From NCBI GenBank assembly GCA_023301005.1, contig JALZVK010000162.1, positions 1-57,099 of the forward strand: a stretch of DNA of 57,099 nucleotides, read 5' to 3'. Of the stretch, positions 4,077 to 56,829 are shown one piece after another (position 1 is the first letter of the stretch; each line of letters begins with the position of its first letter). The stretch comes from Saprospiraceae bacterium. GTDB taxonomy: Bacteria; Bacteroidota; Bacteroidia; Chitinophagales; Saprospiraceae. The position numbers were made by a program, and so were the translations under genes. The notes below the pieces were generated by a model, which was not told where the DNA came from, did not search any database, and saw only the letters and a program-made list of their open reading frames with translations.

Positions 4077-4160
4077 AGTAGACTAATGAGAAGGTTTTGT
4101 AAATGAGCAACAAAACTAATCAAAAATCTAAAATATAGATAGAGGTTTAAGACTTTAAGA

Positions 4161-4402
4161 GGAGAGACATCTTTAGAATAAGGGAAAACGGGAAGATGAA
4201 TTTGAGAAGTATGAAGTTTTGACGAGTATTTTTGTATTTATATTAAAATGAGAAATCCAAATCTTCAGAATGAATATTTGGATTTCCTATTTATAAAAAA
4301 AACAATACACTTACGAAGTAAGTAAAACTAAACTAAGGAGTTAAAATAAGCTAATTCGTAAAACTTCATAATTCGAATAGCGCAGCGTTCCCCTATTCAA
4401 AT
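4161..4402. repeat. Palindromic element C1 (copy of the element at 43192-43450)
   Basis: Colinear with 43192-43450. Shared blocks are GGAGAGACATCTTTAGAATAAGGGAA, ATTTGAGAAGT, an internal hairpin, AAAAAAACAATACACTTACGnAGTAAGTAAAA and AGCGTTCCC..TTCAAAT. The right terminal arm is degenerate. Confidence 0.8.
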
Positions 4403-36680: not shown

Positions 36681-36794
36681 TTTTGAATAGAACACAGATG
36701 CCACGGATAAAAGCGGATTGACGAGTTAACAAGTTTGTTCGTAAAAAATCTGTATTAATTCGCTCAATTCGCGGCATCCGTGTTCTATCAAAAT
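36681..36794. repeat. Palindromic element J (overlaps the stop codon of the GT9 gene)
   Basis: ATAGAACACAGATGCCACGG (left) pairs with CGCGGCATCCGTGTTCTAT (right). Both mismatches are A/C on the plus strand and G-U compatible on the minus strand. Confidence 0.7.
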
Positions 36795-37747
36795 TTAATT
36801 TCCGAACATTTAAAATGACCCTTCGGACATGCCTTAAATCCATGCAATCCACAAGGTCGGCAATCTAATTTTTCCTTCGTTTCTAACACTCTTCTTACGG
36901 ATGACAAAGGCGTAAAACCGAAACTCGGAACGGTCGAACAAAACACGCCCGTCACAGGTGCATTCATCGCCGAAGCTAAATGCAAAGGCGCAGAATCATT
37001 TACATAATTCATTTGAGCATTTTTCATTAAAGCAGCGGATTGCAATAAATTTAATTTGCCTGCTAAGTTATGAATATTAGAATGTTGACTCGTTGATTTT
37101 ATTTTTTCACAACTCTCAAAATCAGAAGGTGCACCTAATAAATAAATTTCTTCTTCCTTTGGTAATCTTTGAATTAGCTCCAACCATTTTTCCGCAGGTA
37201 ATTGTTTGGTGAACCAAACAGATGTAGGAGCAATACAAATATATCTTTCATTCGTTTTTATTTGATTAAAATCAGAATCGCTTGGATAGAGTTTTGGAAG
37301 TGCAGGTTGCTCATTAGTAAGGTGTGCAATCAGATGATGATTACGTTGAATCTCATGAGTAAAATTATTGCTATCCGCAATTTGATGTTTTATTTTTTTT
37401 GTAAAAAAAGTAGACAATGGATTTTTGTCAAAACCAACTTTCTCTTTTGCATTAGAAAAAGCAGTTAGCATTCCTGTACTAAAAAATCGTTGGCAATTAA
37501 TGACATTATCATATTTTGTTCGTCTGATTTTTTGTAGGATGGAAAAAAGATTTTTTGTTTTGTTTTGTTTTTTATTCCAAATCAAAACTTCATTTAGCTT
37601 AGGATGATTTTTGAGTAAACCTTCATTTCCTTTTCGCAATAAAAAATCAATCTTTGCATCAGGAAATTGTTGATGCAATTTTTCAATAAGAGGAGTTGCT
37701 AATATAACATCTCCGATAAATGCCGTTTGAATAATAAGAATTTTCAT
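36788..37747 (-). CDS. Glycosyltransferase family 9 (LPS heptosyltransferase-like)
   Basis: MKILIIQTAFIGDVILATPLIEKL start typical of GT9, plus a C-terminal NDSAPLHLASAM block. ATG at 37747 chosen because the longer ORF overlaps the divergent gene. Confidence 0.8.
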   Translation of the reverse strand: MKILIIQTAFIGDVILATPLIEKLHQQFPDAKIDFLLRKGNEGLLKNHPKLNEVLIWNKKQNKTKNLFSILQKIRRTKYDNVINCQRFFSTGMLTAFSNAKEKVGFDKNPLSTFFTKKIKHQIADSNNFTHEIQRNHHLIAHLTNEQPALPKLYPSDSDFNQIKTNERYICIAPTSVWFTKQLPAEKWLELIQRLPKEEEIYLLGAPSDFESCEKIKSTSQHSNIHNLAGKLNLLQSAALMKNAQMNYVNDSAPLHLASAMNAPVTGVFCSTVPSFGFTPLSSVRRVLETKEKLDCRPCGLHGFKACPKGHFKCSEIKF

Positions 37748-37782
37748 ATCATCGCAAAGGTAAGTATTAGACTTAATTATAA

Positions 37783-38715
37783 ATGGAAAAAAAAGAATGG
37801 ATTCTGTTGGCTTTGAGTTTTTGGAGTTTGTCGATGTTTGGACAGATTCATTGGGGCAATTCTTTTGGAGGTAGAGTTGGTGCTGCAATTCAGTTGGGGC
37901 AACCTGTAAATCGAGTAGGATTAGTGGCGAATGTTTTTTATGGATTTGATTATGGGCAAGTGAATTTGGAATGGAGAGGACATTATAATTTTTCCAGTTT
38001 TGGACCTCCGAAAAAAGGTTGGGAACAACAATTGATAACTGGACTTACATTGGCAGCAGGCGAAAAGAATGATGATGAGGTTCCTTTTGTGATGCCTTTT
38101 TTACAGCAGACAGGTCGGAAGTATGCAATAAGTTATGCGGTACATTTTTATAGAGATCAAATAGGAACTTCACAACGTTCGGGAACAATTGCTTTACAAT
38201 TTAATCATGTTAATATTATTGTTGAGAATGATGCGTTTGGAAGTTATCAAGGGGGTGACGAATTTAGAACAGGAGCATTTTCGATTTTATATCATAACCA
38301 AAATTGGTTGTACGAATTGAAAACTGTATTGTGGACAGGTTTTACTAAAGGAGAAGGAACGACGACTCATAAAGATTCTGATTATCCTTGTCGATTTGGT
38401 TATAGAGATATTTGCGGAGCGAAATATGGACGATTCTCACATGGAATATTGGGAGGACAAGTACATCGAATTTTGGATTATGGTCAGGTCGTGCAATTGG
38501 GAGTTGGAATTGATTCGGAGCGAGTCCGAAATTTTATTCAAAATAAATTGATACACGACATGTATTTTTTTCCAAAAGAATGGACGAAGGTGAGAAACCT
38601 TCATATACCAATGTTGGATAATGAGGGAAATGCATATACATTTCAGGAAGGGCAACAACTAAAACCTGCTTTGTGGTATTTAAATTTTGCAATAAATGGA
38701 GGACGGTTTTATTAG
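37783..38715 (+). CDS. Hypothetical secreted protein
   Basis: Signal peptide LLALSFWSLSMFGQ. The sequence is beta-rich and I cannot assign a family from the sequence alone. Confidence 0.5.
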   Translation: MEKKEWILLALSFWSLSMFGQIHWGNSFGGRVGAAIQLGQPVNRVGLVANVFYGFDYGQVNLEWRGHYNFSSFGPPKKGWEQQLITGLTLAAGEKNDDEVPFVMPFLQQTGRKYAISYAVHFYRDQIGTSQRSGTIALQFNHVNIIVENDAFGSYQGGDEFRTGAFSILYHNQNWLYELKTVLWTGFTKGEGTTTHKDSDYPCRFGYRDICGAKYGRFSHGILGGQVHRILDYGQVVQLGVGIDSERVRNFIQNKLIHDMYFFPKEWTKVRNLHIPMLDNEGNAYTFQEGQQLKPALWYLNFAINGGRFY

Positions 38716-38935
38716 AATTAATTCTATGTTTTTGAACCAGAAATTTTATTTTTACGTAAGTAATAATTACAATTAGGAAAGTGAATAAAATTTTACATCC
38801 TAATTTGCTCTCCTTCTAATTTTTATTGTTTTAAAATTCAACTATATTACACTTTAAATTGATGTCATTTCTAAATATACCACACATTTTTACTACACAA
38901 GACTACCCCATTTTTATTTAAAAACAGAAAGGAAT

Positions 38936-39331
38936 ATGTCAAAAAAAGATAATAATCATTCAATGAATGGTACTACTCTAGGAGAGATAAGTACGATTAG
39001 AGATATTTTGATGGGTCAACAGATTCAAGATTTTGAAACTCGATTTCAAAGTCTTCAAAATCAGATGGCAGAACTAGAAGATAAGTTGAATCAAAAAGTG
39101 AAAGATGTTTCAAAGAGTACTTCCAATATTGAAAAGATATTAATGAAAGATATGTCAGGACAAATATCTCAATTGGAAAGCCAAACAGAAGGACGTTTGA
39201 ATCAATTAGAACAATCTCTAAAAGATGGTCTGATGGATCTTCAAAATAAAATGGAAGAATCGAATATGAATGATAGAGAAAGAATCGCTAAGTTACTTTT
39301 GGATGCTGGTAATAATTTGTTGAAGAGTTAA
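38936..39331 (+). CDS. Coiled-coil protein, first gene of the small-GTPase operon
   Basis: 131 aa with heptad-like Q/E/L/K-rich sequence (FETRFQSLQNQMAELEDKLNQKVKD .. QLESQTEGRLNQLEQSLKDGLMDLQNKMEE). Confidence 0.6.
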   Translation: MSKKDNNHSMNGTTLGEISTIRDILMGQQIQDFETRFQSLQNQMAELEDKLNQKVKDVSKSTSNIEKILMKDMSGQISQLESQTEGRLNQLEQSLKDGLMDLQNKMEESNMNDRERIAKLLLDAGNNLLKS

Positions 39332-39356
39332 TCGATAGATTTTAAGAATTTCCTAA

Positions 39357-40178
39357 ATGATAATGGAGACTCAAAAAAATAAAAACGAAATAGATGAAGC
39401 TAAGTTGTTTGACCAACTGAAGAATATTCTATTGAAGGAAGAGCGAGAAGAAATCCAAAAAGTTCAAGAGACAATTTATAAAGAAGAAAATCTTTCAAAA
39501 CAAATATCTCCAATTGTAACTGAGCATATTGAATTTTTAAAACAAAACTTCCCTGAAGAATTTAAAGTAGTCGTAGATGATATGATTACTCATAAAATTA
39601 AAAATTCGAAAGAAGAAATAGTGAATGCCATTTATCCTGAAGTGGGTAAGATGATTAAAAAATATGTAGGACATCAAATCCAAATATTAAAAGAAGGAAT
39701 TCAAAGTCAAATAAAAGGGAAAGGGATTTTTGGAAATTTAAAAGCAAGAATGGGATTTGGAAATGCAGAGGAGGAAATCATCCAAAATTTAGATCCTACA
39801 GTAATTGAAGAAATATTTATAGTTCAAAAATATTCAGGTTTGTTGGCAGGAAGTGCGACTCGAAATAATATGGTTGATCGAGATGTAGTTGCTGGAATGT
39901 TGACTGCTATAAAATCTTTTGTGGAAGATGCATTTAAAAGAGATAATGAAGAACTAGAAACTATTGAGTATGGTTCTTATAGAATTTTTCTACAAACTTT
40001 CCCTTCTTGGTATATGGCAGTTGCATTAAGTGGAACTCTTACTACTAAGGAAAAAGATGAACTGTCTAATAAGATATTAGATTTTGCGAGTGATAAAATG
40101 CCAACTCGAATAGATGAAATTAATGATAAACTGAATAAAGAGTTATCTCTAAAATTAGAGAAATTTTTTATCCAATAA
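39357..40178 (+). CDS. Coiled-coil protein with C-terminal Roadblock/LC7-like region (inferred)
   Basis: 273 aa. The helical N-terminal half is followed by IEEIFIVQKYSGLLAGSATRNNMVDRDVVAGMLTAIKSFVEDAF .. IEYGSYRIFLQTFPSWYMAVALSG, which matches the strand-helix-strand pattern of Roadblock/MglB domains. The gap to the upstream gene is 25 nt. Confidence 0.5.
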   Translation: MIMETQKNKNEIDEAKLFDQLKNILLKEEREEIQKVQETIYKEENLSKQISPIVTEHIEFLKQNFPEEFKVVVDDMITHKIKNSKEEIVNAIYPEVGKMIKKYVGHQIQILKEGIQSQIKGKGIFGNLKARMGFGNAEEEIIQNLDPTVIEEIFIVQKYSGLLAGSATRNNMVDRDVVAGMLTAIKSFVEDAFKRDNEELETIEYGSYRIFLQTFPSWYMAVALSGTLTTKEKDELSNKILDFASDKMPTRIDEINDKLNKELSLKLEKFFIQ

Positions 40179-40239
40179 GTACTCAGACACAAATAAACAA
40201 ATAATAAATACAAATAAGCTAAATTTTAAAAACAGAAAA

Positions 40240-40725
40240 ATGACTAGTAAAAAAGTGATACTGGCAGGTAGCTTTGGAGTTGGAAAAACTTCGCTATTTA
40301 ATCAGTTTATCTACAATAAGTTTGATGACAAGTATTTAACCACAATAGGTGTAAAGGTTAATAAAAAAGTGGTTCAAGTAGGAGATAGAGAACTTTCGAT
40401 TTTACTTTGGGATATAGCAGGAGAAGTATCTCAGAATAAAGTTCCTGTTACTTACTTCCTTGGAGTAAGTGGCGTTATTTATGTTTTTGATCTTAGTCGT
40501 CCTACTACATTTAAGAATATAGAAGAGGATATTAATTATCTGAAAAAGATCATTGATGGAGGAGTTATACGGATGGTTGGGAATAAGAAAGATTTACTTA
40601 CAGAAGAACAATTGAAAGAAGTGAGAGAACAATTATCAATTCCATTTGATATAGCTACAAGTGCAAAAACGGGAGAAAATGTTGAACAACTATTTCATGA
40701 TTTAGGACAAGCCTTATTGGACTAA
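40240..40725 (+). CDS. Rab/Ras-like small GTPase
   Basis: 161 aa with G1 GSFGVGKTS, switch I YLTTIGV, G3 WDIAGE, G4 GNKKDL and G5 TSAKTGENVEQLF. Overall it is colinear with eukaryotic Rab1-type sequences and has no C-terminal Cys. Confidence 0.88.
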   Translation: MTSKKVILAGSFGVGKTSLFNQFIYNKFDDKYLTTIGVKVNKKVVQVGDRELSILLWDIAGEVSQNKVPVTYFLGVSGVIYVFDLSRPTTFKNIEEDINYLKKIIDGGVIRMVGNKKDLLTEEQLKEVREQLSIPFDIATSAKTGENVEQLFHDLGQALLD

Positions 40726-40738
40726 TAATTTTTAATCT

Positions 40739-41194
40739 TTGACTGGAGATAAACATACCAATAATAAATTCAGGCAACTAATTTTACTTAATGATATGGT
40801 AGAATTACTAGCGAGTGATGATTTGATTTTTTCGACAGAAAAACTCAAAGGAATATCTGTTGAAAAATGGTTTCCATTTATAGAAAGTATTTTTAGTAAT
40901 TTAAAAAAATTGAAAGAGAGTGATGGGGAGTTAATTTTTTCGAGAGTAGAGTCGCCTGCTGAATTTTTGCCTGGCGCGTATGATTTTTGTTTTACAAAAA
41001 TAAAAATAGAAGAGAAAATATATCTTCAATGGTCAATATATGATTACACAAAAGTTTATGAATATTTGATAAAATATCAACAATTAAAGAATGAAAAAGA
41101 TATTTATAGACAACAACTAGAATACAAGAGTAAGAAAATGAAAACTATAAATCAGCTACTTTTGAAGCCATTTCAAGGGAATAATCATTCATAA
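40739..41194 (+). CDS. Hypothetical PAS-like protein with coiled-coil tail, last gene of the GTPase operon
   Basis: A TTG start lies 13 nt after the GTPase stop, with the first ATG at 40796. The alpha/beta region ending LQWSIYDYT, followed by a helical tail, resembles the end of a PAS domain running into an S-helix. This is inference only. Confidence 0.5.
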   Translation: MTGDKHTNNKFRQLILLNDMVELLASDDLIFSTEKLKGISVEKWFPFIESIFSNLKKLKESDGELIFSRVESPAEFLPGAYDFCFTKIKIEEKIYLQWSIYDYTKVYEYLIKYQQLKNEKDIYRQQLEYKSKKMKTINQLLLKPFQGNNHS

Positions 41195-41351: not shown

Positions 41352-42203
41352 ATGAAAAAAATACTCAATATTTCCATCGCTTTAATTTTTTTCCAGTCTT
41401 TCTTATTTGCTCAATCAAGCTCATATACAAATGAAGACTCTAAAGGAATTATTTATAATCAAGAGTTCACAATTGATGCTCGATTACATACTAATGGATT
41501 TGCACTAGGTGCTAATTTCACAAAAATAAAAACCTTTCGTAAATCAACCTATTATCAATTTGAAATAGGTGAGTTAAAACATTCTAAAGAATTTCGTCAA
41601 AATAGTGATAGTCAATTTCCAAATCAAGGTTCGCCGCAATCTTTTATTTTGGGAAAACAAAATAACCTTTATGTGATAAGAGCAGGTTATGGGCGAAAAA
41701 AATATTTGTCAGAAAAAGCAAAAAGAAAAGGTGTAGCAATTGGTTTAAATTATGAAGCAGGTGTTACATTAGGTTTACTTAAACCTTATTACCTTGATAT
41801 CAAACAAACCGATCCTGGTCAACCTGGTTTAATTCCAACTAGAGCAGAAAGATATGATCCTGAAAGTCCATGTACATTTTTAGATCCGATAGGACGAATA
41901 TATGGAGCAACTGGATTTTTTAAAGGACTTGGAGAAGTAAGACCTTTGCCAGGTGGACATTTCAAAGCCGGAGTTCACTTTGATTGGGGCGCATTTGACG
42001 AATTTGTAAAAGCAATAGAAATAGGTATTGCAGCAGATGTATTTGTTAAGCGAGCACCTATTTTAGTTCATATAAATGAAGAGACGCTGAATATTATGCA
42101 ATCAAGTTGCCCTCATTTGGCACCTGATGAAGTAGAACCAAATCCTAATCGTCCATTTTTTATTAATCTTTACGTAACTTTGCAGTTAGGGAAAAGATGG
42201 TAA
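41352..42203 (+). CDS. Hypothetical outer-membrane/secreted protein
   Basis: Signal peptide ALIFFQSFLFAQ, beta-rich sequence, and a C-terminus ending ..LGKRW. Confidence 0.55.
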   Translation: MKKILNISIALIFFQSFLFAQSSSYTNEDSKGIIYNQEFTIDARLHTNGFALGANFTKIKTFRKSTYYQFEIGELKHSKEFRQNSDSQFPNQGSPQSFILGKQNNLYVIRAGYGRKKYLSEKAKRKGVAIGLNYEAGVTLGLLKPYYLDIKQTDPGQPGLIPTRAERYDPESPCTFLDPIGRIYGATGFFKGLGEVRPLPGGHFKAGVHFDWGAFDEFVKAIEIGIAADVFVKRAPILVHINEETLNIMQSSCPHLAPDEVEPNPNRPFFINLYVTLQLGKRW

Positions 42204-43454: not shown

Positions 43455-46400
43455 TTACTCAATTTTTATTTTATCATAATCCTTAAAAATAGGAGACTGA
43501 GCAGCTTCGACTTTAGTTTGATAATCTTTCCAGTCATTTTCAAAAAAAGCATTTACCTTATCCAATACATCATTTACTTTTTGTTTAGCTTGTTCAGTAG
43601 CAAATTGAGCCATCTGCCCAGGTTTGCCTTCCGATGCATAAATATATCTTCTTGCAGTAAAAACGCTTGACATAATTCTATTATCTGAACGTTGAATACC
43701 TTTAGCATCTTGTGGCGCCATGTAGAGATGTTGTAAGGTAGAGATACTATCTTGTAAAGCTTTTCCTAATTTTTTCATTTCCTTTTTTGTAGAATCAGGA
43801 GCATTGACTAATTGGTCGTTGACCAATTTGATAGTCTTTTTAGCTTCTCTTAAACGGTCAAAACTTTCAGTTGTCGCATTGATTATTTTATTGAAATCTT
43901 GAACAGCGACTTCTTTCATTTTCATTTGTTCAGGAGTCGTTTCTCGCCTTGGGTCAAGGTGAATATTGAAAGTTGTAGAATCTTTATAGTCGCCATAGAT
44001 GCAAACCATTTTATAATTACCAGGTAATGCACTTGGTCCACCACCAGGAGGATCAGCATTCTTTCGAGGACTTCTCCAAGAAGGAAATCTAATTCCATCT
44101 CTACTCATTCCCCAACTGATACGATTCATTCCAGCTTCTAACTCTCGACTATAAGTACGAATGGTATCACCCGCGCTATCCATGATATGGATTTTTACTT
44201 TTTTATCTTTATCACCTTTCTTCTTTTTCGTTTTGTCTTTAGCGACGGAAGTGTCTTGTTTTTTCTTTTTAGCTTTCTTTTTGCGTTTAGCATCAGGGCT
44301 AGGCATTTTCTCTTTTTTCTTTTCTTCTTTTTTTACCCAAATAGAAATCATAGGATTCGATGATTTATTTTCTCCTTTAAAAATTGCGTCTGCATGGAAA
44401 CGAACGCCATCAACAGAACGAAAACTCGCAAGGTAACCATCAGTAGCAGAAATCACATCGAAAGGTTTTGATAATAATTGTCCATTCGTTTTTGCTAACT
44501 CACGGAACACTCGAATGTCATCAAAAATCCAAGCTGCCCGACCAAATGATCCAACAATCAAATCATGATCTCTAGGATGAATTTTTAAATCACGAGTTGA
44601 TACAGAAGGAAAATCTTTCATCCACTTGTTCCAAGTGCTTCCTTTATCTAACGAAAAATATAAACCGTAATCCGTTCCTAGAAATAATAAATTTTCTTCT
44701 ACAGGATCTTGAACGATAGAAAGTGTATGACCTTTTACATTATTTCCATCAGCAATTCTTCGGAAGGATTGACCATAATTAGTTGTATGGTAGAGATAAG
44801 GAGTCCAATCATTTTGGCGATAATTATTGAGGATGATAAATGCTTCACCCGCATTCTTTTGCGAAACTTCGATATAAGGAATCCAACCATTTTTAGGTGC
44901 GCCAGTTAAGCGACTAGCAAGATTAGTCCAATTTTTTCCACCGTCTTTTGTGAGTTGTAAATTTCCATCATCTGTTCCTACCCAAATTACATCTTCATCG
45001 ACAGGACTAGGAAGAATAGCTAAAATGGTCGTGTGATTTTCAGCACGAGTTACATCAGGAGTCAGTCCACCTGTTCGAAGACTTGCATTAATTTTTGCAG
45101 TATCATTAGTAGTTAAGTCAGGTGAAATAATTTCCCAACTCATTCCTTTATCAGAACTTTTATGAACAAACTGACTTCCAAAATATACTCCATCATTATC
45201 AAATGGATTTTGAGCAATCGCTGCATTCCAATTAAATCTCAATTCAATTCCATCAGGGTGAACAGGTTTGATAGAAGTCGTATGTCCAGTTTCTTTATCA
45301 ATATACCCTACAAATCCACCTTGAGACATTGACCACAAATAACGACTATCATCTTTATAAAACATCATATCGAAACCATCTCCAAACATGACCTCTCGCC
45401 AATCTGCATTTCGAATTCCTCCACGCTTCCAAATAGAACTTGGTCCTACCCAAGAACCATTGTCTTGCATACCTCCACCGATGTTGTAAGGAATTTCCAT
45501 ATCGTAATTGATATGATAAAATTGAGCAACAGGAATATTTTCAACAAATCTCCAATTGACTCCATTATCTCTTGAAATATTTACACCACCATCATTTCCT
45601 TCTATCATATAATTAGGGTCAGTTGGATGTTGCCAAAAAGCATGATGATCAGGATGCACTCCTTTTCCATAATCCAAAATTACTTCAAAAGTTTTTCCAC
45701 CGTCTTCACTTTTAGAAACATAAGTCCAAAGATTCCAAAGTCGATTTTCATTACCTGAATCCACAAAAATATCAGCATAATAAAATGGACGATTTCCAAT
45801 ATCTTTTTTTGAAATTAATTTCCATGAAGCTCCGCCATCTGTTGATTTATATAAACCATTTTCTTTTGCTTCAATTAATGAATACATAATATTTGGCTTA
45901 GAAGGAGAAAATGCTAAACCGATTCTCCCTAAATTTCCTTTAGGCAAACCATCTTTATGAGAAAGTTTTTTCCAAGTCTTACCACCATCGTAAGTGATAT
46001 GCATTCCAGAACCTTCACCACCTGATTCGAAGGTCCAAGGCTTCCGACCAAACTCCCACATGGCAGCTACTAACTTATTAGAGTTAGAAGGATCCATCAC
46101 TAAATCTGCAATACCTGTAGATGAATTAGTATAGAGAATTTTATCCCAAGTCATTCCTCCATCAGTTGTCTTAAATACTCCACGGTCTTCACTATTTCCC
46201 CAAGCAGCACCTTGTGCACCTGCATATACAATATTAGGATTGTCAGGATTGATAATGATTCTATGAATTACTTTTGTTTTTTGTAATCCCATTTGAGTCC
46301 AAGTCTTTCCGCCATCAATAGTTTTGAAAATACCATCGCCACTATTCTGAGAATTACGAGGATTTCCTTCTCCAGTTCCTACCCAAATTTCATCTGTATT

Positions 46401-46688
46401 TTTTTGATTGATTGCGAGGCTTCCGATTGATTGCAAAGGAGCTTCATCAAAAATAGGTTCCCATCGGACACCACCACTTTCTGATTTCCAAACACCACCA
46501 GAAGCAGTTCCAACATAAATAATTTCAGGATTGGTCAAATCTACATCAATAGCAGTTACACGACCACTCATCCCTGCGGGACCGATATTTCTTATTTTTA
46601 AATTTTCAAGGTCTTCGACATTTATTTTTTGTGAAAAACAGAAAATGGAAAAAAAGCATAAGGAAAGTAAGGTTAAATAAAATCTCAT
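43455..46688 (-). CDS. Secreted BNR/Asp-box (sortilin/VPS10-like) beta-propeller protein
   Basis: Signal peptide MRFYLTLLSLCFFSIFCFSQ and many Asp-box-like repeats (S.DGG.TW: TIDGGKTW, TTDGGMTW, YDGGKTW, STDGGASW, SEDGGKTF, TKDGGKNW). ATG at 46688 is preferred. Confidence 0.8.
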   Translation of the reverse strand: MRFYLTLLSLCFFSIFCFSQKINVEDLENLKIRNIGPAGMSGRVTAIDVDLTNPEIIYVGTASGGVWKSESGGVRWEPIFDEAPLQSIGSLAINQKNTDEIWVGTGEGNPRNSQNSGDGIFKTIDGGKTWTQMGLQKTKVIHRIIINPDNPNIVYAGAQGAAWGNSEDRGVFKTTDGGMTWDKILYTNSSTGIADLVMDPSNSNKLVAAMWEFGRKPWTFESGGEGSGMHITYDGGKTWKKLSHKDGLPKGNLGRIGLAFSPSKPNIMYSLIEAKENGLYKSTDGGASWKLISKKDIGNRPFYYADIFVDSGNENRLWNLWTYVSKSEDGGKTFEVILDYGKGVHPDHHAFWQHPTDPNYMIEGNDGGVNISRDNGVNWRFVENIPVAQFYHINYDMEIPYNIGGGMQDNGSWVGPSSIWKRGGIRNADWREVMFGDGFDMMFYKDDSRYLWSMSQGGFVGYIDKETGHTTSIKPVHPDGIELRFNWNAAIAQNPFDNDGVYFGSQFVHKSSDKGMSWEIISPDLTTNDTAKINASLRTGGLTPDVTRAENHTTILAILPSPVDEDVIWVGTDDGNLQLTKDGGKNWTNLASRLTGAPKNGWIPYIEVSQKNAGEAFIILNNYRQNDWTPYLYHTTNYGQSFRRIADGNNVKGHTLSIVQDPVEENLLFLGTDYGLYFSLDKGSTWNKWMKDFPSVSTRDLKIHPRDHDLIVGSFGRAAWIFDDIRVFRELAKTNGQLLSKPFDVISATDGYLASFRSVDGVRFHADAIFKGENKSSNPMISIWVKKEEKKKEKMPSPDAKRKKKAKKKKQDTSVAKDKTKKKKGDKDKKVKIHIMDSAGDTIRTYSRELEAGMNRISWGMSRDGIRFPSWRSPRKNADPPGGGPSALPGNYKMVCIYGDYKDSTTFNIHLDPRRETTPEQMKMKEVAVQDFNKIINATTESFDRLREAKKTIKLVNDQLVNAPDSTKKEMKKLGKALQDSISTLQHLYMAPQDAKGIQRSDNRIMSSVFTARRYIYASEGKPGQMAQFATEQAKQKVNDVLDKVNAFFENDWKDYQTKVEAAQSPIFKDYDKIKIE

Positions 46689-47046
46689 GTTTGTGTTGTT
46701 TATAAAAAAATAATAAGCTAAATTATTGAAAATAATTGATTCTATAGCCAAATTAATAAGATGTCTGAAAAGGAAAATTAAAATTTTATATGCAATGTCA
46801 TATATGTATATATGGTAATGTTTTATTTTGTACTAAATATATAGGCATCGTTTGCCTACTAATCAGTATCTTTAGTATTAAAATAACCTCAACTAAATCT
46901 TTAATTTGTAAGGTCATATAATTTTCAGTTTTAGCTATGAATTCAAAAAAATAATTTTCATAATCATTTATGAAATGGTATTCTATGTATTGTGTCTTTA
47001 TTTGAGACATAGACTAACAAACATTATTTACAATCAATCAAATACA

Positions 47047-50000
47047 ATGAAAAGAATTTTACTTCCCTCTGCCGCTTCGATTTTTATATTGTTGACTTGT
47101 ATGGCTTTTATGCCAGAGTCAGTTTCTGAAAAAAATAATAGTTTAACAGATATAGTTCTTGAGTTGTCAGAATCTCAGGAGCGAATTGGTTTTACGTTTG
47201 AAAAAGGTGGAATTAATGAAGTGACCTTATGTAATCTAGAAGTAGGAGTTAATTATGATTTATCTATTTCTGATTTAGGATTTCAATGTACAATGGATCC
47301 TACTTTTTTTGGAAAAAATAATAATGCTGCAAAGCATTTAAAAATAAATTCATCGACAGGATGTTATGAATTAAAAATACAAAACCATTGTAATTTCAAA
47401 AAAGAAGCTGTCCTTTCAGTAAGTCGTGAAGAGATTATTGATACTAATAATAATAATACAGGGCAGAATGATGATACAGAAGTAGTACCGATTACTACAA
47501 ATTCAAGTATGACTGCAACTCAGTTAATTGAAGATGTATTTATCGGAGGAGGTTGTTTTGATGTTACTAATGTGCAAACAATTGGTTCGTCTCAAGGAAT
47601 TGGTTCATTTGCCAATGGAGGAGCTTCTATAGGATTTGATGAAGGAGTAGTTTTGTCATCTGGAAATATCAACGGAGTTTCAGGACCGAATTCGGGTGAA
47701 CAAGGAGCGAGTTCAGCAACAGGTGGTGGATCTGATTCTGACCTAGCGATTTTAACTTCTCAAAACATTAATGATGCAGCAGGAATTGAATTTGATTTTT
47801 CTCCGACACTTTCAACAATACAATTTCAATTTGTATTTGGATCTGAGGAGTATTGCGAATTTGTAGGGACGCAATTTAATGATGTATTTGGATTTTTTAT
47901 TAGTGGAAATGGATTCAATGGACCTTACTCAGGAGGTGGAGAAAATATTGCATTAGTGCCAGGAACGGTAACACCTATAACTATTAACACAGTTAATAAT
48001 GTAACTAACTCTCAATATTTTTTACCAAACAATGCAGGATGTGGAGGGGTGACCAATTCAGCGGATATTGAATTTGATGGATACACTGTTGTACTGACAG
48101 CTACAGCCAATGTAATTCCTTGTGAGACTTATCATATTCGATTAGTAATAGGTGATGGTTCGGATTCCATTTATGATTCAGCGGTTTTTCTAAATGCAGG
48201 AAGTTTTAATGCAGGTGGACAAGCATCTGTAACAGGTGGTAATGCTAATGGTTCAGGAGTGATATTTGAAGATTGTGATGATGGATTTATCACTTTTACA
48301 AGAGAGACAGGAGATGCATCACAACCTTTAATAATTACATATACGATTGACCCTGCAAGTACAGCTACAGCTGGTGTTGATTATGTTCCGCTTCCTACCT
48401 CTATTATAATACCTGCGGGACAAACTGAGGTTACTATTCCAATTACTGTTTTTGGAGATGCAATAATAGAAGGTATTGAAACAATTATATTAGATATAGA
48501 TAATTCCTGTTCTTGTGTAAATAATACCGCCACAATACAAATAAGTGATAGTGTTCCACTCGATGTAGATGGCTTGGATGATCAGGAGTTATGTGGTTCC
48601 CAAACCTTGACACTTTCCCCAACTATTGTTGGAGGAGTACCTCCTCTTACATATTCGTGGAGTACAGGGCAAACCACACCTTCGATTACTACAACTATTA
48701 CTCAAACCACTTTAGTATCTGTAACCATTACAGATGATTGTGGAAATACAGGAATAGAAGATGCAACAATTACGATTGGACAAGCTCCAACTGCAGTATT
48801 ATCAGGTAGTGCTGAAATTTGTCCTCCAGGTAACTCTGCTGCTACATTGCAAGTTTTATTTACTGGAGATGGTCCATGGGATTTATTTTATACTTTAAAT
48901 GGAGTTGCTCAAACTCCACTTTTAGGAATTACAACTAATCCATTTTCTTTACAGGTTTCTGCATTAGGAACTTATGCGATATCTCAAGTTATCGAAGATG
49001 GATGTCCAGGTTCAGGTTCTGGACTTGGAATAGTTACACCAACGATTCTTACACCAGTTGCGGTCGCATTTGATGTAAGTTGCCCTGGGCAAAATGATGG
49101 AGCCATTAATACGATACCAGTAGGAGGAGAACCTCCTTATTCATATTCATGGAATAATCCAAGTGCTGGGGTACAACAAAATCCTAATAATTTACCAGCA
49201 GGAAATTATATAGTTACTGTATCAGATGCTAATGGTTGTACAGGTGTAACTTCGACTACTATTAATGAACCAGCAGCTATCATAGCGTCAGCTACAGGAG
49301 CATCTGTAGATTGTAATAATCCTAATGGAGCAACTTTAACTTTGACAGTATCTGGAGGAACAATTCCTTTAGGATATCTGTGGAGTAATGGTTCTACGCA
49401 ACAAAATCCAACAGGTATAACTTCTGGAACTTATACGGTTACAGTTACTGATGACGCAGGATGTACTACTACTACATCTGCATTAGTTACTGAAGATTTT
49501 GCTCCACCTACTGCTGTCGCAAATGTAATATCAAATATAAATTGTAATAACCCACAAGGTTCTTTGAATGGAAGTGGTTCAAGTACAGGAGGTGATTTTA
49601 TTTATTCATGGACTACTCAAGATGGTAGTTTCATAGGTGGACAAAATTCATTAACACCTACTGTTGGCTCGGGAGGTACTTATGAATTAATCGTCACTAA
49701 TACGACTAATGGTTGTACTGAAGTTGCGTCAGTTATGGTTTCAGAAGATACCACTCCACCAGATGCTGTGGCAAATGCACCTTCTAATATAGATTGTAAT
49801 AATGCTCAAATATCTCTTGATGGATTTGGTTCAAGTACAGCAGCTGGAGTCAGCTATCAATGGACGACTTCAGATGGTAATATCGTTTCGGGAGCAACTA
49901 CTCTTAATCCTTTAGTAGATGCTGCGGGTACTTATATCTTGACTGTTATTAATGCAAATAATGGATGTGTGAATGTAGCTACAGTTAGTATTACTGCTGA

Positions 50001-53000
50001 TTTGACTCCACCAGATGCTGACGCAGGACAACCTCAAATGATAGGTTGTAATACTAATAATGTGACGTTGGTTGGAGCATTTTCAAGTATGGGCCCAAAT
50101 TTCACTTATATGTGGACGACTGGAAATGGATTTATCGTTTCAGGTGAAAATACTCTACTCCCTCAAGTTTCTGCTCCAGGTACTTATGAGATATTAGTAA
50201 CAAATACTACTAATGGATGTACTGCAATTGATTTTGTAGATGTGACTTTGGATAACTCAGCTCCAGTTGCTGATGCAGGTACTCCAATGGATTTGACTTG
50301 TGGGACAAGTCAATTAAATTTAGATGGAAGCGGTTCTGATTCAGGACCAGACATTACATATATGTGGACGACACAAGATGGAAATATTACAGGAGATCCA
50401 ATGTCTATAAATCCATCAATAGATGCTGCGGGTACTTATCAATTGGTTGTAACTGGAGGCAATGGTTGTTCTACTATTTCAACGGTAACCATCGGAGAAA
50501 ATCAAACTGAACCAAATGTTGATCCAGGACCAACGATAAATATTCCATGTGGAGCAACGCAAGTTACTTTGATGGGAAATACATCGACTACTGGTAATCT
50601 TACATTTTTATGGACAACACAAAATGGAAATATTGTCTCAGGAGCTAATACATTAAATCCTATAGTAGATGCTTCGGGGACTTATCAATTGACCATTTTT
50701 AATAATGATAATAATTGTGTTAATGTTGCTTCGACAGATGTAACTAATATTGCAATTCTTCCTGATGTTGATGCAGGAGTTGACCAAGAACTAACTTGTT
50801 CAATGGCTCAAATAATCTTAGATGGTTCTAATTCTGCGACTGGTGCAAGTATCACTTATATGTGGATGACTCCAGATGGAAATATAGTTTCAGGTGATAA
50901 TACAATCAATCCAACAGTTGATGCGCCAGGAACATATACTTTATTAGTAACAGATGCTGATAGTGGATGTACATCGACAGCAACAGTTGACGTAACTGAA
51001 AATGTAGTTTTACCAAATGCAGTAGCAACAGCTCAAGGGGCGTTGACTTGTACCGTAATGGAAGTTGGTTTGGATGGAAATGGTTCAAGTACAGGTAATT
51101 TCACTTATCTGTGGACGACTCAAAATGGAAATATTCTTTCAGGTGATAATACATTAACACCTCAAGTTAATGCAGCAGGTACTTATCAAATTTTAGTTAC
51201 AAATACAATAACAGGTTGTACACAAACAGCTACTGTTGATATAACAAATGATGGAAATGTCCCTGATGTGAATGCAGGAGTCGCAGATGATTTAACTTGT
51301 ATAATTTCTCAAGTTACCCTAAATGGAAGTGGTTCTTCTGGAAATAATTTCACTTACCAATGGACGACCCAAAATGGAAATATCGTTTCAGGTGATGATT
51401 CATTAAATCCACTTGTAAATGCAGCAGGACTTTACCAACTTGTAATAACAGATATTACCAATGGTTGTACCGCACTATCTACAGTAGAAGTGGATGAAGA
51501 CAATGTACCACCTGTTGCTATTGCAAATCCAATCAATGCTTTAGGTTGTACTCAAACGACTGGGACATTAGATGGAACAGGTTCAAGTACAGGAATGGGA
51601 ATCACTTATCAATGGACGACTCAAAATGGAAATATCGTTTCAGGTGATGATTCATTAAATCCAGTTATTGATGCAGCAGGTACTTATCAAATATTAGTCA
51701 CCAATACTTTAACTGGATGTACTGAAGTTGCTTCAGTTGATGTTGATAATGATGGAGATGTACCAGATGTCAATGCAGGAATGGCTGATGATATTACATG
51801 TGATAACAATGATATTACATTAAGTGGAAGTGGTTCAAGTGGAGCAGATTTCACTTACGAATGGGTAACCCAAAATGGAAATATTGTTTCAGGTGCAAAT
51901 TCATTAGATCCAATTGTAGATGCTATCGGAATTTATGAATTGATAATTACTAATATTTCAAATGGATGTAGTGCATCTTCATTTATCGAAGTATTTGAAA
52001 GTACAGATTTCCCAACAGCAATAGTTAATCCATCTAGTCCGTTAGGGTGTACTCAAATGACGACAACATTAGATGGAACAGGTTCTTCAAATTCAGGAAC
52101 AGACTTTACTTATGAATGGACAACTCAAAATGGAAGTATTGTTTCTGGCGAAACAACTTTAATGCCTGTTGTAAATGCTGCTGGAACTTATGTCTTAGTA
52201 GTAACCAATACAACTAATGGTTGTACGCAGACTGCTTCAATTGATGTAGTCAATGATGGAAATGTACCAGATGTCAATGCAGGAATGGCTGACGACATCA
52301 CCTGTAATAACAATGAAATTACATTAAATGGAAATGGTTCAAGTGGAGCAGATTTCACTTACGAATGGACGACTCAAAATGGAAATATTCTTTCAGGTGG
52401 ATCTACTTTAAATCCACTTGTCAATGCGGTAGGAGAATATCAATTAATGGTGACAGATATAAATAATGGTTGTACTGCTATTTCTTTAGTTACAGTTGGA
52501 GAGAATGTATCACCACCAGATGTTACATTAGATATTCCAGATCCATTAGATTGTAATACCTCTACAGTAAATTTAACAGGAACTAATAATGACCCTACGG
52601 GAAATTACACTTACACTTGGACGACTCAAAATGGAGACATCATCTCAGGTAATAATACTTTAAGTCCAATCGTAGGTCTTGAAGGTCAATATACTTTAGA
52701 AATAATGAACACTGATAATGGATGTGTTGCGACTACTTCAATAGATGTAACTATTGATAATCAAGAACCTTTGGCAGATGCTGGAAACTTGATGGAAGTA
52801 ACTTGTGCCAATAACGAAATCACTTTGGATGGAAGTGGTTCTGCGTCAGGGGCGAATTTTACATACGAATGGACGACCCAGAATGGGTCAATAATATCAG
52901 GAGCAGATTCTATCAATCCTCTAGTAGGTGCAGCAGGTACTTACCAAATTTTAGTAACGGATTTAAATAACGGTTGTACTGCAATTAGTGAGGTGGTTGT

Positions 53001-56000
53001 CGATGAGGATTTTGATGACCCAGTTGCAGTTGCAGGTCAAACTCAAACTTTAAGTTGTTCTCAAACTTCTCTTCAGTTGAATGGAAATGGAAGTTCATTT
53101 GGAAATGAATTTATCTATGAATGGACAACACAAAATGGAAGTATCATTTCAGGTGATAATACTTTGACTCCAGAAATAAATGCAGCAGGTGATTATCAAC
53201 TTCAAGTAACGAATACAGATAATGGTTGTATCAATACATCAACAGTAACAATTGAGCAAGATAGTAACGTACCAAACTCTTCAGCAGGAGACGACAATGT
53301 TTTAAATTGTGATATTACAACTTTGACCTTAGATGGTTCTAACTCATCTTCTGGAATTGAATTCTCTTATGAGTGGACAACTCAAAATGGTAATATTGTT
53401 TCAGGTGCAAATACAATTAATCCTCTAATAGACATGGCTGGTGATTACCAATTGGTAGTAACCAATAATACCAATGGATGTACTGCGCCATCTTCGTTAA
53501 CGATTGTTTTGGATGAAACAACACCAACCTCTGAGGCAGGTGTTGCTCAATCATTAAGTTGTACTAACAATGAAGTTACATTAGATGGAGTTGGTTCAAG
53601 TACAGGTACAGAATATACTTACCAATGGGTAACACAAAATGGAAATATCGTTTCAGGTGAAAATACATTGACACCAGTAGTTAATGCAACTGGTACTTAC
53701 GAACTCATCGTAACTTTCTTAGGAAGCGGTTGTACGACTTCTGATTTTGTAGATGTAAATCAAGATAGCAGTTTACCAACTGCTGATGCAGGAGATGGTT
53801 TTGAAATCACTTGTAATGCTTTTGATGGAACACTAGATGCAAGTAATTCGACTACTGGAGCTGATATAATTTTTGAGTGGACAACACAAGATGGAAATAT
53901 CGTTTCGGGTGAAAATACATTGACACCTTTAGTAGATGCAGCAGGTGTTTATCAATTAATATTGACTAATGCAACGAATGGTTGTACTGCAATTTCCGCA
54001 GTAACAGTTGTAGATAATAACAATGAACCTACGGCAGAAGCAGGTATCACATTAGAACTCAATTGTAATGATGAAATGCTAACGCTTAGTGGTACAACAA
54101 CGGATACAAGTTCAACTCTAATTTATGAATGGACGACTCCAGATGGTAACATTGTTTCAGGTGAAAACACATTGAATCCTGAGATTAATTTGGAAGGAAC
54201 TTATCAATTAATGATAACCAATACTGCGACAGGTTGTGTCTCTACAGATGATGTAATTATCACTTCTGATTTTACAACTCCAATAGCAGATGCAGGTGCG
54301 ACAGATGAGTTAAATTGTACGCAACCTTTTGCGACACTTGATGGGAATGGAAGTAGCACGGGCGTAGAATATATTTACTTATGGACGACTCAAAACGGGA
54401 ATATTGTTTCAGGTGAAAATACATTAAATCCTGATGTCAATATGGCTGGCGATTACGAACTTCTAGTAACTAATATCGTCAATGGTTGTACTTCTATCGA
54501 AGTAGTTTCTATTACTGAAAATATCAACGAACCCGATGTAAGTATTGCAGTTGCAGCTGATTTGACTTGTGATTTGACTGCTTTCGAATTAGATGGAAGC
54601 GCATCAAGTACAGGTACAGAATTTACATATCAATGGACTACAACTGATGGTAATATTGTAAGCGGTGATGATGCAGTAAATCCAATGATAGATGAACCTG
54701 GAACTTATGTTTTAGTCGTAACCAACACTACGAATAATTGTTCAGCAACTTCGCAAATTGTAGTTGACGAAAATGTAATTGAACCTACTTCAAATGCAGG
54801 TGTACAAGGACAGTTGACCTGTGCAATTACTCAAACTCAATTAGATGGAAGTGCATCAAGTACAGGTGCTAACTTCATCTATTTATGGACAACGACTACA
54901 GGAAGTATTATCTCAGGTGAAACTATTCTTACTCCTACCGTAGGCGGTACAGGGACATATGAATTAATCGTAACAAATACCATTACAGGATGTACATCAA
55001 GTTCATTTACAGATGTTGCTTCTGATGGAAATCTTCCAGACGTTGCAGCGGCTCCGATGGGTATGTTGACTTGTTCAACAACGACAATTGACTTAAATGG
55101 AAATGGTTCTTCGACAGGTGCTGACTTCACTTATACATGGACAACAGTTAATGGAAATATAGTGTCAGGTGAGACGACACTTTTTCCAACAGTAAACCAA
55201 ACAGGTGACTATACTTTAATCGTCACTAATATTACAAATGGTTGTAGCGATGAAGTTACAATTATTGTAAATGAAGATATAGAGCCTCCAGTTGCAGTTA
55301 TAGATCAAACAGGAAGTACGAGTTTAGATTGTATAAATTCAAGTCTTATTTTAGATGGTTCAGGTTCGCAGCCTTTTGGAAATGTATCTTACGCATGGAC
55401 AACTATTGATGGAAATATTGTCTCAGGGGGAAATACTGCCAACCCTGAAATTGATGACGATGGAGAATATATTTTGACTATCACAAACTTAACCAATGGC
55501 TGTACAGAAACTCAATCTATAATTATAGACCAAGACCTTTCTGTTCCGCAAGGTAATATTGTACAACCAATCCCATTGACTTGTAATATTACAGAGTTGA
55601 CATTAGAAGGAACACTTCTATCAGTAGGAACAAATTTCTCTTACCAATGGACAACAACTAATGGGAATATTGTTTCGGACGGAACGACCTTAAATCCAAC
55701 TGTCGATGAGCCAGGATTATATCAATTAATTATTACAGATTTAAATAGTAATTGTGATAATCAATTTTCGATAACTGTATCGGAAGATGTTTTAGCACCA
55801 GATGCTGAAGCAGGAGTCGCTGATAATTTAGATTGTCAAGTTACCTCAGTTTCTCTAAATGGTTCTGCATCTTCATTTGGAAATAACATTACTTATACGT
55901 GGACGACAACTAATGGAAATATTGTTTCAGGAGCGACTACAACTTCACCAGTTGTAGATGCCGAAGGAACTTATACACTCTTGGTAACGAACAATCAAAA

Positions 56001-56829
56001 TGGTTGTACTGCAATAGATGCAGTAGTTGTCGATGCTGATGCAAGTGCACCAAGTGGAATCATATTTACTATCGACGAACCAGAATGTCATGACGACCCA
56101 GGAAGTATCATTATCGAAACGGTAGATGGAGGAACTCCGCCATACTTATATTCGATTGATGGAGATAATTTTTATAGTGGACATATCTTTACTTTAGATG
56201 CTGGCGACTATACATTATATGCTCAAGATGCTTCAGGATGTGAAACTCAAACCAGTTTTATTATCCCAGAATTAGATCCCGTAAGTATAGTGTTAGAAAA
56301 TGAAGTTACGATAGATTTAGGTGACACTTACCAAATCGAAGCGACTACAAATATTCCGACTGATGAGATAGAATCAATTCGTTGGAGTCCAGATGCTTTC
56401 TTATCTGCGAGTGATATTCTAAATCCAGTTGTTGAGAATTTATTTGAAGGCTTAACCTACACAGTAACTATTACAAATATTTATGGTTGTAAAGTACAAG
56501 CAAGCATCACAGTAAATGTAGATAAATCAAGAGCCATTTATATCCCAAATGTATTCTCTCCAGGAACTGGAAATGAGAATGACATCTTTATGATTTACGC
56601 AGGCGACCTAAGTCAAATCAAACAAGTCAATACATTTTTGATTTTTGATAGATGGGGAGAAGTAGTGCACCGAGCAGAAAACTTTATGCCAATGGATCCT
56701 GATCAAGGTTGGGATGGAACGTTCAAAGGAAAAACAATGAACCCTCAGGTTTTTGTTTATTGGGCGGAGATTGAATTTATAGATGGAATAAAAATTCTAT
56801 ACAAAGGAGATGTCGCTCTGAAAAAATAA
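47047..56829 (+). CDS. Giant (~3260 aa) T9SS type-B cell-surface adhesin (SprB-like architecture)
   Basis: Signal peptide [21 protein letters not shown], then a choice-of-anchor-L-like domain, a Calx-beta-like domain, SprB-type repeats, 26 PKD-like tandem repeats and a gliding-motility-associated C-terminal domain. Confidence 0.9.
   Translation: [3260 protein letters not shown]
47515..48218 (+). other. Choice-of-anchor-L-like N-terminal domain of the giant adhesin
   Basis: [17 protein letters not shown] .. GVVLSSGN .. SDSDL .. [21 protein letters not shown] .. [10 protein letters not shown] .. FDGYT .. [15 protein letters not shown]. Confidence 0.6.
48256..48510 (+). other. Calx-beta-like domain
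   Basis: [70 protein letters not shown]. Confidence 0.65.
49492..56056 (+). repeat. In-frame tandem array of 26 ~252-nt (~84-aa) PKD-like repeats
   Basis: Each unit matches C..(6)..L[DN]GSGSS.G..F.Y.WTT.[ND]GNIVSG.N.L.P.V.A.GTY.L.VTN..NGCT....V.V..D...P.A.AG. I counted 26 W[TVM]T motifs. Confidence 0.88.
56521..56826 (+). other. T9SS type-B (gliding-motility-associated, CHU_C-like) C-terminal sorting domain
   Basis: [21 protein letters not shown] .. [17 protein letters not shown] .. [24 protein letters not shown]. Confidence 0.75.

Follow-up and report, generated by a model that had tools for sequence, protein, structure and literature searches.

A cluster of four short genes was examined in a 57,099-nucleotide stretch of genomic DNA from a Saprospiraceae bacterium (contig JALZVK010000162.1 of assembly GCA_023301005.1, positions 1–57,099; hereafter the window). 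Four forward-strand open reading frames (ORFs), whose products are called p1 to p4 here, span 38936–41194 with intergenic gaps of 25, 61 and 13 nucleotides and together form a candidate Group 1 Rup (Rup1) small-GTPase signalling system. An initial annotation, made from the DNA letters alone, had read them as tightly spaced same-strand genes for a coiled-coil protein, a protein with a helical N-terminal half and a Roadblock-like C-terminal region, a Rab/Ras-like GTPase with motifs G1 to G5, and a PAS-like protein with a coiled-coil tail. Coordinates and gaps were reproduced when the ORFs were checked, and all four descriptions held, that of p2 on structural evidence only. Kyte-Doolittle analysis gave p1–p4 no hydrophobic segment of membrane-helix length (maximum 19-residue mean 1.47).

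Proteins encoded by the cluster

The first gene (38936–39331, forward strand) encodes p1, a soluble coiled-coil protein of 131 amino acids. Searches of Pfam and NCBIfam returned only coiled-coil noise for it, and its N-terminus carries the conserved motif G-E-I-S-T-I-R-x-I-L-M-G-Q-Q.

The second gene (39357–40178, forward strand) encodes the 273-residue p2. For neither p2 nor p4 was a family found in Pfam or NCBIfam, and a profile of the p2 family gave only spurious helical matches to PDB sequences. p2 was modelled with AlphaFold2 from a 30-sequence alignment without templates. The N-terminal half (residues 1–145; 39357–39791), in which helical motifs of the form 'I-x-P-I/V...' are repeated, was all-helical and of low confidence, with predicted local distance difference test (pLDDT) values of 36–67. 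Residues 146–273 (39792–40178) formed an alpha/beta domain of topology b-b-a-b-b-b-a-a, with block-mean pLDDT values of 44–90. This domain contains the most conserved motif of the protein, D-x-D-V-I-A-G-M-L-T-A-I-K-S-F-V-E-D-A-F, on the helix of residues 175–192.

Foldseek comparison of the p2 C-terminal domain with the PDB returned top 50 matches that all belong to the Roadblock/longin superfamily. Myxococcus xanthus MglB ranked first (E = 1e-4), and the other matches included the Ykt6 longin, Mon1-Ccz1, Ragulator p14/MP1, TRAPP, AP sigma, Rag C-terminal domains and dynein LC7. Target-normalised template-modelling (TM) scores were mostly 0.45–0.71. The modelled domain, whose confidence is moderate to low, superposes on solved structures of this fold, and we consider that p2 probably contains a Roadblock/longin domain. 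In MfpD/MfpB, the interface between Roadblock dimer and GTPase is formed by the dimer's alpha-2 helices (PMC13015309). We infer that the most conserved segment of p2 corresponds to Roadblock alpha-2, a helix that is poorly placed in the model.

The third gene (40240–40725, forward strand) encodes p3, a small GTPase of 161 amino acids. It matched the Ras family PF00071 at 2.5e-30 in Pfam, far more strongly than Gtr1_RagA (1.7e-7), and its best PDB matches were Sec4, Rab6 and Rab1 (about 4e-24 to 1e-20). Over 79 distinct orthologues the GTPase motifs were near-invariant: G1 (G-x-F-G-V-G-K-T; GSFGVGKT at 40267–40290 on the forward strand of the window), switch I Thr35, G3 (W-D-I-A-G-E; 40408–40425, forward strand), G4 (N-K-x-D; NKKD in the window) and G5 (T-S-A-K; TSAK in the window). 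The G3 Asp (Asp58) was invariant in the 79 orthologues; because it is present, p3 is not MglA-like, as the initial annotation had also argued. Two further positions were invariant in the same set, namely Glu62, which stands where the catalytic Gln would be expected (Ras Gln61), and a Phe at the position of Ras Gly12. This pair of replacements was a detail absent from the earlier reading. No C-terminal lipidation motif is present in p3.

The fourth gene (40739–41194, forward strand) encodes p4, a protein of 151 amino acids. Its TTG start was accepted because the invariant Gln13 precedes the next in-frame ATG. The AlphaFold2 model of p4 was confident (pLDDT 86), with topology b-b-a-a-a-b-b-b followed by a 30-residue helix. 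It delimits a predicted PAS domain (about residues 11–103; 40769–41047, forward strand) and a long J-alpha-like helix (residues 104–133; 41048–41137, forward strand). Foldseek matched the model to the YtvA LOV domain, NtrB PAS, TodS PAS1 and short LOV proteins at 4e-4 and weaker, with target-normalised TM-scores of 0.55–0.65 against PAS structures; the Pfam PAS models did not match p4. Gln13 and Gln115 were invariant among 46 sequences; strand 1 begins at one of them, and the helix begins close to the other.

Assignment to the Group 1 Rup system

Group 1 Rup GTPases were defined by comparative genomics (Wuichet and Søgaard-Andersen, 2014, Genome Biol Evol; PMC4316618). They lack the G3 Gln and are accompanied by three conserved genes (PMC4316618). 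One of these encodes DUFY, a coiled-coil protein, and another DUFX, a conserved domain whose function is unknown and which often has a membrane helix and OmpA after it (PMC4316618). The remaining gene encodes an output protein, either a histidine kinase or a GGDEF/EAL protein, with an invariant Gln in its N-terminal region that the authors suggested may be supplied in trans to the GTPase (PMC4316618). Fusion of DUFX to a membrane helix and OmpA occurs in many phyla, though not in Bacteroidetes or Chloroflexi; the Bacteroidetes clusters of Table S2 have the order DUFY>DUFX>Rup, GTPases of 161–165 amino acids and DUFX without OmpA (PMC4316618). Later phylogenies group Rup1 with eukaryotic Rab/Ras/Rho/Ran and Asgard RasL.

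The window cluster has the same gene order. p3 is a single-domain GTPase of Rup1 size that keeps the G3 Asp and lacks the catalytic Gln. The adjacent p1 gene encodes a cytoplasmic coiled-coil protein in the place of DUFY, and the adjacent p2 gene corresponds to DUFX in its Bacteroidetes form, without membrane helix or OmpA. p4 has an N-terminal region with invariant Gln residues (Q13, Q115) but no output module. It differs from the fourth protein of the 2014 definition in consisting of a predicted PAS domain and helix without kinase or GGDEF/EAL domains, and some of its relatives carry a pseudo-kinase.

Homology to a cyanobacterial cluster was also found. In a tblastn search, p2 matched an 'OmpA family protein' on a Nostoc flagelliforme plasmid (3e-16). 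The Nostoc genes encode, in order, a hypothetical protein (215 aa), the OmpA family protein (731 aa, BON + OmpA), a Rab family GTPase (174 aa) whose G3 motif is DIEGS, and a kinase with the domains PAS-HisKA-HATPase-REC-Hpt. Hidden Markov models (HMMs) built from Saprospiraceae sequences matched the first three products at 3e-18 (p1), 2e-39 (p2) and 4e-43 (p3), and the N-terminal half of p2 aligned with the repeated helical region of the Nostoc DUFX:OmpA protein. The fourth gene of N. flagelliforme (L085, 7270–9650) is divided into two overlapping ORFs, annotated as a 176-aa 'hypothetical' and a 622-aa 'ATP-binding protein'; its counterpart on a plasmid of Nostoc sp. UHCC 0926 (L086, 7170–9638) is a single 822-aa ORF. 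The division in N. flagelliforme points to a frameshift or pseudogene.

Gene order, motifs and profile matches together indicate, with a probability that we put at about 0.8, that the cluster is a Saprospiraceae member of the Rup1 signalling system, here in a kinase-less form. The earlier view of it as an undescribed module has to be given up, since Group 1 Rup was defined in 2014 with DUFY>DUFX>Rup examples from Bacteroidetes (PMC4316618). Three aspects are new relative to that definition. DUFX, a domain of unknown function in the original paper, probably contains, by its predicted fold, a Roadblock/longin-like domain; the N-terminal region of the output protein is, according to the models, a PAS domain with a J-alpha-like helix; and the kinase, judged by its motifs, is either degenerate (without phospho-acceptor His or G1 and G2 boxes) or absent in this lineage. 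No earlier Roadblock assignment of DUFX was found in the literature searched, which left most subscription journals outside its reach.

Conservation across genomes and decay of the kinase

Loci were compared in a set of 85, made up of the window, 80 GTDB species representatives and four contigs from a protein look-up, one of which duplicates a GTDB locus. Relatives of p2 numbered 543 at 90% clustering and were encoded in at least 466 GTDB species-representative genomes; the best 80 of these at least 466 genomes were all labelled Saprospiraceae, Lewinellaceae, Saprospirales, Chitinophagales or unclassified Bacteroidota. The order p1-p2-p3-p4 was kept, with relatives of p2 in 85/85 loci, of p1 in 83/85, of p3 in 82/85 and of p4 in 68/85, and the p1 relatives sat directly upstream of p2 in 83/85 loci. 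Absences of core genes mostly coincided with contig ends. Examination of neighbourhood conservation, a check proposed with the initial annotation, showed the four-gene order to recur in about 80 species-representative Saprospiraceae/Bacteroidota genomes. The cluster is single-copy and forms a conserved four-gene unit well beyond chance.

In about a dozen loci p4 was undetectable after the GTPase gene (L042, L054, L076, L080, L084 and others). The next forward-strand ORF in five p4-less loci encodes 264–285 amino acids, a size like that of the product of 41352–42203 in the window. The minimal conserved core may be DUFY-DUFX-Rup.

Beyond the core, the next commonest neighbours among the 85 loci were DUF7033 (53), UPRTase (34), a 269-aa protein whose window counterpart lies at 41352–42203 (31), a transporter (28) and LipA (25), a pattern of ordinary within-family shared synteny. 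The DUF7033 gene (PF23019, ~440 aa) lies divergently upstream of p1 in its 53 loci, for example L002, L003 and L004, and is not present in the window between 32000 and 47000. Its adjacency could be shared synteny or a functional link.

Relatives of p4 connect it with histidine kinases. In 25 related loci the p4 homologue was a long form of 350–397 amino acids, and a profile of these proteins matched the DHp and CA domains of solved kinases (7z8n, 4e-18; RetS, 9e-14; HK853, about 4e-10). In comparison with a canonical kinase, however, the phospho-acceptor His was absent in 25/25 and the G1 box deleted in 25/25, the G2 glycines were replaced, and the N-box Asn was kept in 18/25. By these motifs the long forms are pseudo-kinases. 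The window p4 ends after the helix and lacks the DHp/CA module altogether. The H-box His of HisKA and the G1 and G2 boxes of HATPase_c were found neither in it nor in the 25 long-form orthologues.

An exhaustive profile search located the p4 N-terminal domain in 422 clusters at 50% identity, always at the N-terminus. The best 150 of the 422 comprised 89 short and 57 long forms, and only one of these 150, P0326 (644 aa), is canonical on all three kinase motifs; it contains HisKA, HATPase_c, REC and Hpt domains. Genes on the P0326 contig follow the order PG_binding_1 protein, 119-aa protein, 276-aa protein, Ras (162 aa) and hybrid kinase. A third homology search with the p4 profile, limited by its word-index prefilter, yielded 12 new distant short forms and no long ones; finding the long forms took the exhaustive search of representatives. 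On the contig of the canonical hybrid kinase (L087), the PG_binding_1 protein (209 aa; 3613–4242) has a hydrophobic N-terminus and is encoded directly upstream of the p1 homologue. It may stand in, as a separate gene, for the OmpA that is fused to DUFX in other phyla.

Judged by these relatives, p4 is the N-terminal PAS and helix head of the system's kinase, and its gene would be the remnant of an output-protein gene. Motif comparison likewise indicates that the kinase output is mostly decayed or gone in Saprospiraceae and that the PAS head is under strong constraint. The earlier statement that no histidine kinase is present is correct for this window but not for the family, which includes 25 degenerate long forms and one canonical hybrid kinase. 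The succession from canonical hybrid kinase to pseudo-kinase to PAS-only protein within one family would, as a natural experiment, bear on the question of what in the output protein the GTPase needs.

Strength of the assignment and alternative explanations

Several points weigh against the Rup1 assignment or against the reading of its parts. p3 was placed in Rup1 through its HMM similarity to the Nostoc GTPase (4e-43) and a shared motif pattern, and the literature searched contained no experimental study, biochemical or genetic, of any Rup1 system. Alignment of the p4 N-domain profile with the N-terminus of the Nostoc kinase by hhalign gave a probability of 0.4%, which is not significant, so that it is the Bacteroidota relative P0326 that ties p4 to canonical output kinases. 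That the four genes form one operon is assumed from their spacing alone. The remaining points concern p2. Its model has a mean pLDDT of 59, the invariant helix falls in blocks with mean pLDDT of 44–53, and Robl_LC7 (PF03259) did not match p2 at E ≤ 1 in the Pfam and NCBIfam searches. When the p2 C-terminal domain was compared by hhalign with a profile of MglB, the score of 15.3 was no better than that of 100 column-shuffled controls (12.7 ± 2.6). That profile combined M. xanthus MglB (validated against the PDB), Thermus and Deinococcus MglB and 57 metagenomic relatives; the latter are all close (76–100% identity), and the profile is hence shallow. Whether the predicted Roadblock fold of p2 is correct is the main live doubt.

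The Roadblock/longin domain could accordingly be an artefact of a mediocre model, in which case a helical scaffold and an unrelated alpha/beta domain would make up DUFX, and regulation of the GTPase would fall to p4 alone. The low-confidence blocks within the domain and the lack of a sequence-level Roadblock signal would fit such an account, as would the 2014 survey, in which 0/121 Rup GTPases were coupled to MglB homologues (PMC4316618). However, the model was made free of templates, its top 50 Foldseek matches fall in one superfamily at TM-scores mostly of 0.45–0.71, and the order of strands and helices fits Roadblock/longin. We regard an artefact as unlikely, though as a doubt to be taken seriously. 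A different doubt is that the cluster is a decaying, non-functional remnant left after loss of the kinase output. The window p4 lacks DHp/CA, the related long forms lack the His, G1 and G2 boxes, and p4 is undetectable in the dozen or so loci mentioned above. Against this, all four ORFs are intact and many residues are invariant across sequences of 40–78% identity. Short p4 forms also account for 89 of the best 150 clusters at 50% identity, a share that speaks for purifying selection having long acted on the kinase-less form; on these grounds decay is very improbable.

The initial annotation had speculated on a role in motility or secretion polarity. A reading on these lines takes the cluster as an MglA/MglB-type switch for gliding or for placement of adhesins by the type IX secretion system (T9SS). 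As in the MglA/MglB systems of Myxococcus and Thermus, a small Ras-superfamily GTPase adjoins a protein with a Roadblock-type fold (here predicted), and a 3284-aa PKD/SprB/CHU_C protein is encoded 6 kb downstream. In contrast to p3, which has the G3 Asp and scores as Ras/Rab, MglA lacks this residue. MglB is a stand-alone protein of ~160 aa that can be recognised by sequence as Roadblock/LC7, whereas p2, with its helical extension of 145 aa, shows no detectable sequence similarity to MglB, and coiled-coil or PAS partner genes are not part of the Mgl systems. Neighbourhood clustering over the 85 loci gave no conserved motility, gliding or secretion gene next to the cluster. The phyletic spread of Rup1 is also wide: it was reported from Cyanobacteria, Chloroflexi, Nitrospirae and Proteobacteria as well (PMC4316618), and it is carried on Nostoc plasmids. 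The proposed polarity role is not upheld by these data, and we consider it quite improbable.

Descent from the actinobacterial conservon (CvnA-D/Mfp), with the cluster as its divergent homologue, would draw on the shared four-part logic of a kinase-like protein, a Roadblock-fold protein, a small GTPase and one accessory protein, and the analogy between conservon and Group 1 Rup system was drawn by the authors of the 2014 survey (PMC4316618). Conservon GTPases, however, belong to MglA Group 2 and not to Rup (PMC4316618). CvnA, a HAMP kinase, sits in the membrane and has an LPxR tail (PMC4316618), whereas p4 and its long forms are soluble and PAS-headed and the window has no kinase at all. The DUF742 protein of the conservon likewise has no counterpart here: no DUF742/CvnC or Robl_LC7 sequence match was obtained at E ≤ 1 in the four proteins, and Pfam searches of p1–p4 for DUF742, HAMP and HisKA gave no matches. 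Common descent with the conservon is therefore barely credible. Another reading considered was that of a small-GTPase-based anti-phage or conflict system, as some NTPase-based conflict systems use coiled-coil partners and PADLOC reported weak ZorA coiled-coil matches for p1. These matches are confined to coiled-coil regions, and p2, p3 and p4 had none. The cluster is present once per genome beside the housekeeping genes LipA and UPRTase within the family and encodes no effector nuclease, protease or toxin domain, and we give this explanation next to no weight.

Two further comparisons bear on the Rup1 reading. Eukaryotic Rab and Rag GTPases, with Mon1-Ccz1, TRAPP and Ragulator, likewise combine a Rab/Ras G domain with a Roadblock/longin-fold protein. 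Here, however, the pairing of p2 with p3 is predicted, p3 has no lipidation motif and Glu in place of the catalytic Gln, and there is no membrane-traffic context. Rag GTPases moreover carry their own C-terminal Roadblock domain and form heterodimers, whereas p3 is a bare 161-aa G domain. p4 resembles the short LOV/PAS proteins (YtvA LOV, PpSB1-LOV), its best structural matches, in having a PAS core and J-alpha helix without an effector; it differs in its low identity to them (8–21% in Foldseek alignments) and in its apparent derivation from a kinase sensor head.

Proposed mechanism and implications

Every mechanistic step that follows is inferred. The cluster would encode a cytoplasmic small-GTPase switch alongside its own regulators and effector. 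p3 would bind GTP and hydrolyse it poorly on its own, slow hydrolysis being proposed because the equivalents of Gln61 and Gly12 are missing. The switch regions of p3 would be the docking site for p2's Roadblock/longin-like domain, which is probably dimeric, probably presents its invariant helix (AGMLTAIKSFVEDAF) and would act as a GTPase-activating protein, a guanine-nucleotide exchange factor or a scaffold, in the manner of MglB, MfpD, Ragulator or the longin exchange factors. The helical half of p2 would pair with the coiled-coil p1.

p4 would bind GTP-loaded p3 through the junction of PAS domain and helix and may supply a Gln in trans that completes the active site, an idea of Wuichet and Søgaard-Andersen. 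Binding of this type would gate kinase autophosphorylation and phosphorelay in canonical systems. In the window, output would run only through protein-protein interaction by a PAS-helix dimer, similar to that of short LOV proteins, or would consist in control of the GTPase cycle itself. We tentatively propose, at somewhat less than even odds, that DUFX is a Roadblock/longin regulator of Rup1, that Rab/Ras-Roadblock pairing is widespread in Bacteria, and that the Saprospiraceae switch is kinase-less, with a PAS-helix adaptor supplying the catalytic Gln in trans.

If this is true, pairing of Rab/Ras-type GTPases with Roadblock/longin proteins, as in Mon1-Ccz1, TRAPP and Ragulator, would not be confined to MglA, Asgard archaea and eukaryotes, and the conclusion reached in 2014, that no MglB-type proteins are coupled to Rup GTPases, would be overturned. 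Rup1 is of interest in this respect as the bacterial small-GTPase group nearest to eukaryotic Rab/Ras/Rho/Ran in later phylogenies. If the predicted folds hold, the GTPase, candidate Roadblock regulator, coiled coil and PAS effector would form a compact soluble set suited to reconstitution in vitro. They would offer a model for how a Ras-like GTPase is switched off when both canonical catalytic positions are missing, and would allow a test of whether Roadblock/longin regulation of Ras-type GTPases predates eukaryotes. For annotation, Saprospiraceae genes now called 'hypothetical' or 'OmpA' can be labelled as Rup1 components.

Flanking sequences and neighbouring genes

Upstream of p1 lies an AT-rich non-coding stretch of 220 nucleotides (38716–38935) that presumably contains the promoter. 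A promoter and terminator scan using sigma-70-type models, whose scope does not extend to Bacteroidota promoters, performed no better than on shuffled sequences. The single forward-strand hairpin within the cluster falls inside p3: it is a terminator-like hairpin with a T-run at 40446–40474 in the coding sequence, and AT-rich DNA probably produced this match by chance.

Directly upstream of the cluster, a forward-strand gene (37783–38715) encodes a 310-aa protein with a Pfam 'Bacterial toxin 23' domain (Ntox23, 1.1e-33) and a hydrophobic, signal-peptide-like N-terminus. It has no obvious adjoining immunity gene, and at its 5' end there is overlap with a GT9 heptosyltransferase ORF of the opposite strand (36788–37888), whose TTG start is over-extended. 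The giant SprB-like adhesin that had been noted 6 kb downstream was located at 46975–56829 on the forward strand. Among the domains of this 3284-aa protein are many of PKD/Ig type, a single SprB repeat and a Calx-beta domain, with a CHU_C type IX secretion signal at the C-terminus; by its domain content it is a T9SS-secreted giant adhesin. The adhesin gene is not conserved beside the Rup cluster in the 85-locus comparison. Outside Bacteroidota, Deinococcus ficus plasmid pDFI3 (312 kb; L088, 1486–2601) encodes a 'roadblock/LC7 domain-containing protein' followed by an 'ADP-ribosylation factor-like protein', a pair of MglB/MglA type. In the window, the reverse strand at 43455–46751 encodes a 1098-aa Sortilin/Vps10-BNR repeat protein with a very Lys-rich insert (…KKEEKKKEKMPSPDAKRKKKAKKKKQDTSVAKDKTKKKKGDKDKKVK…).

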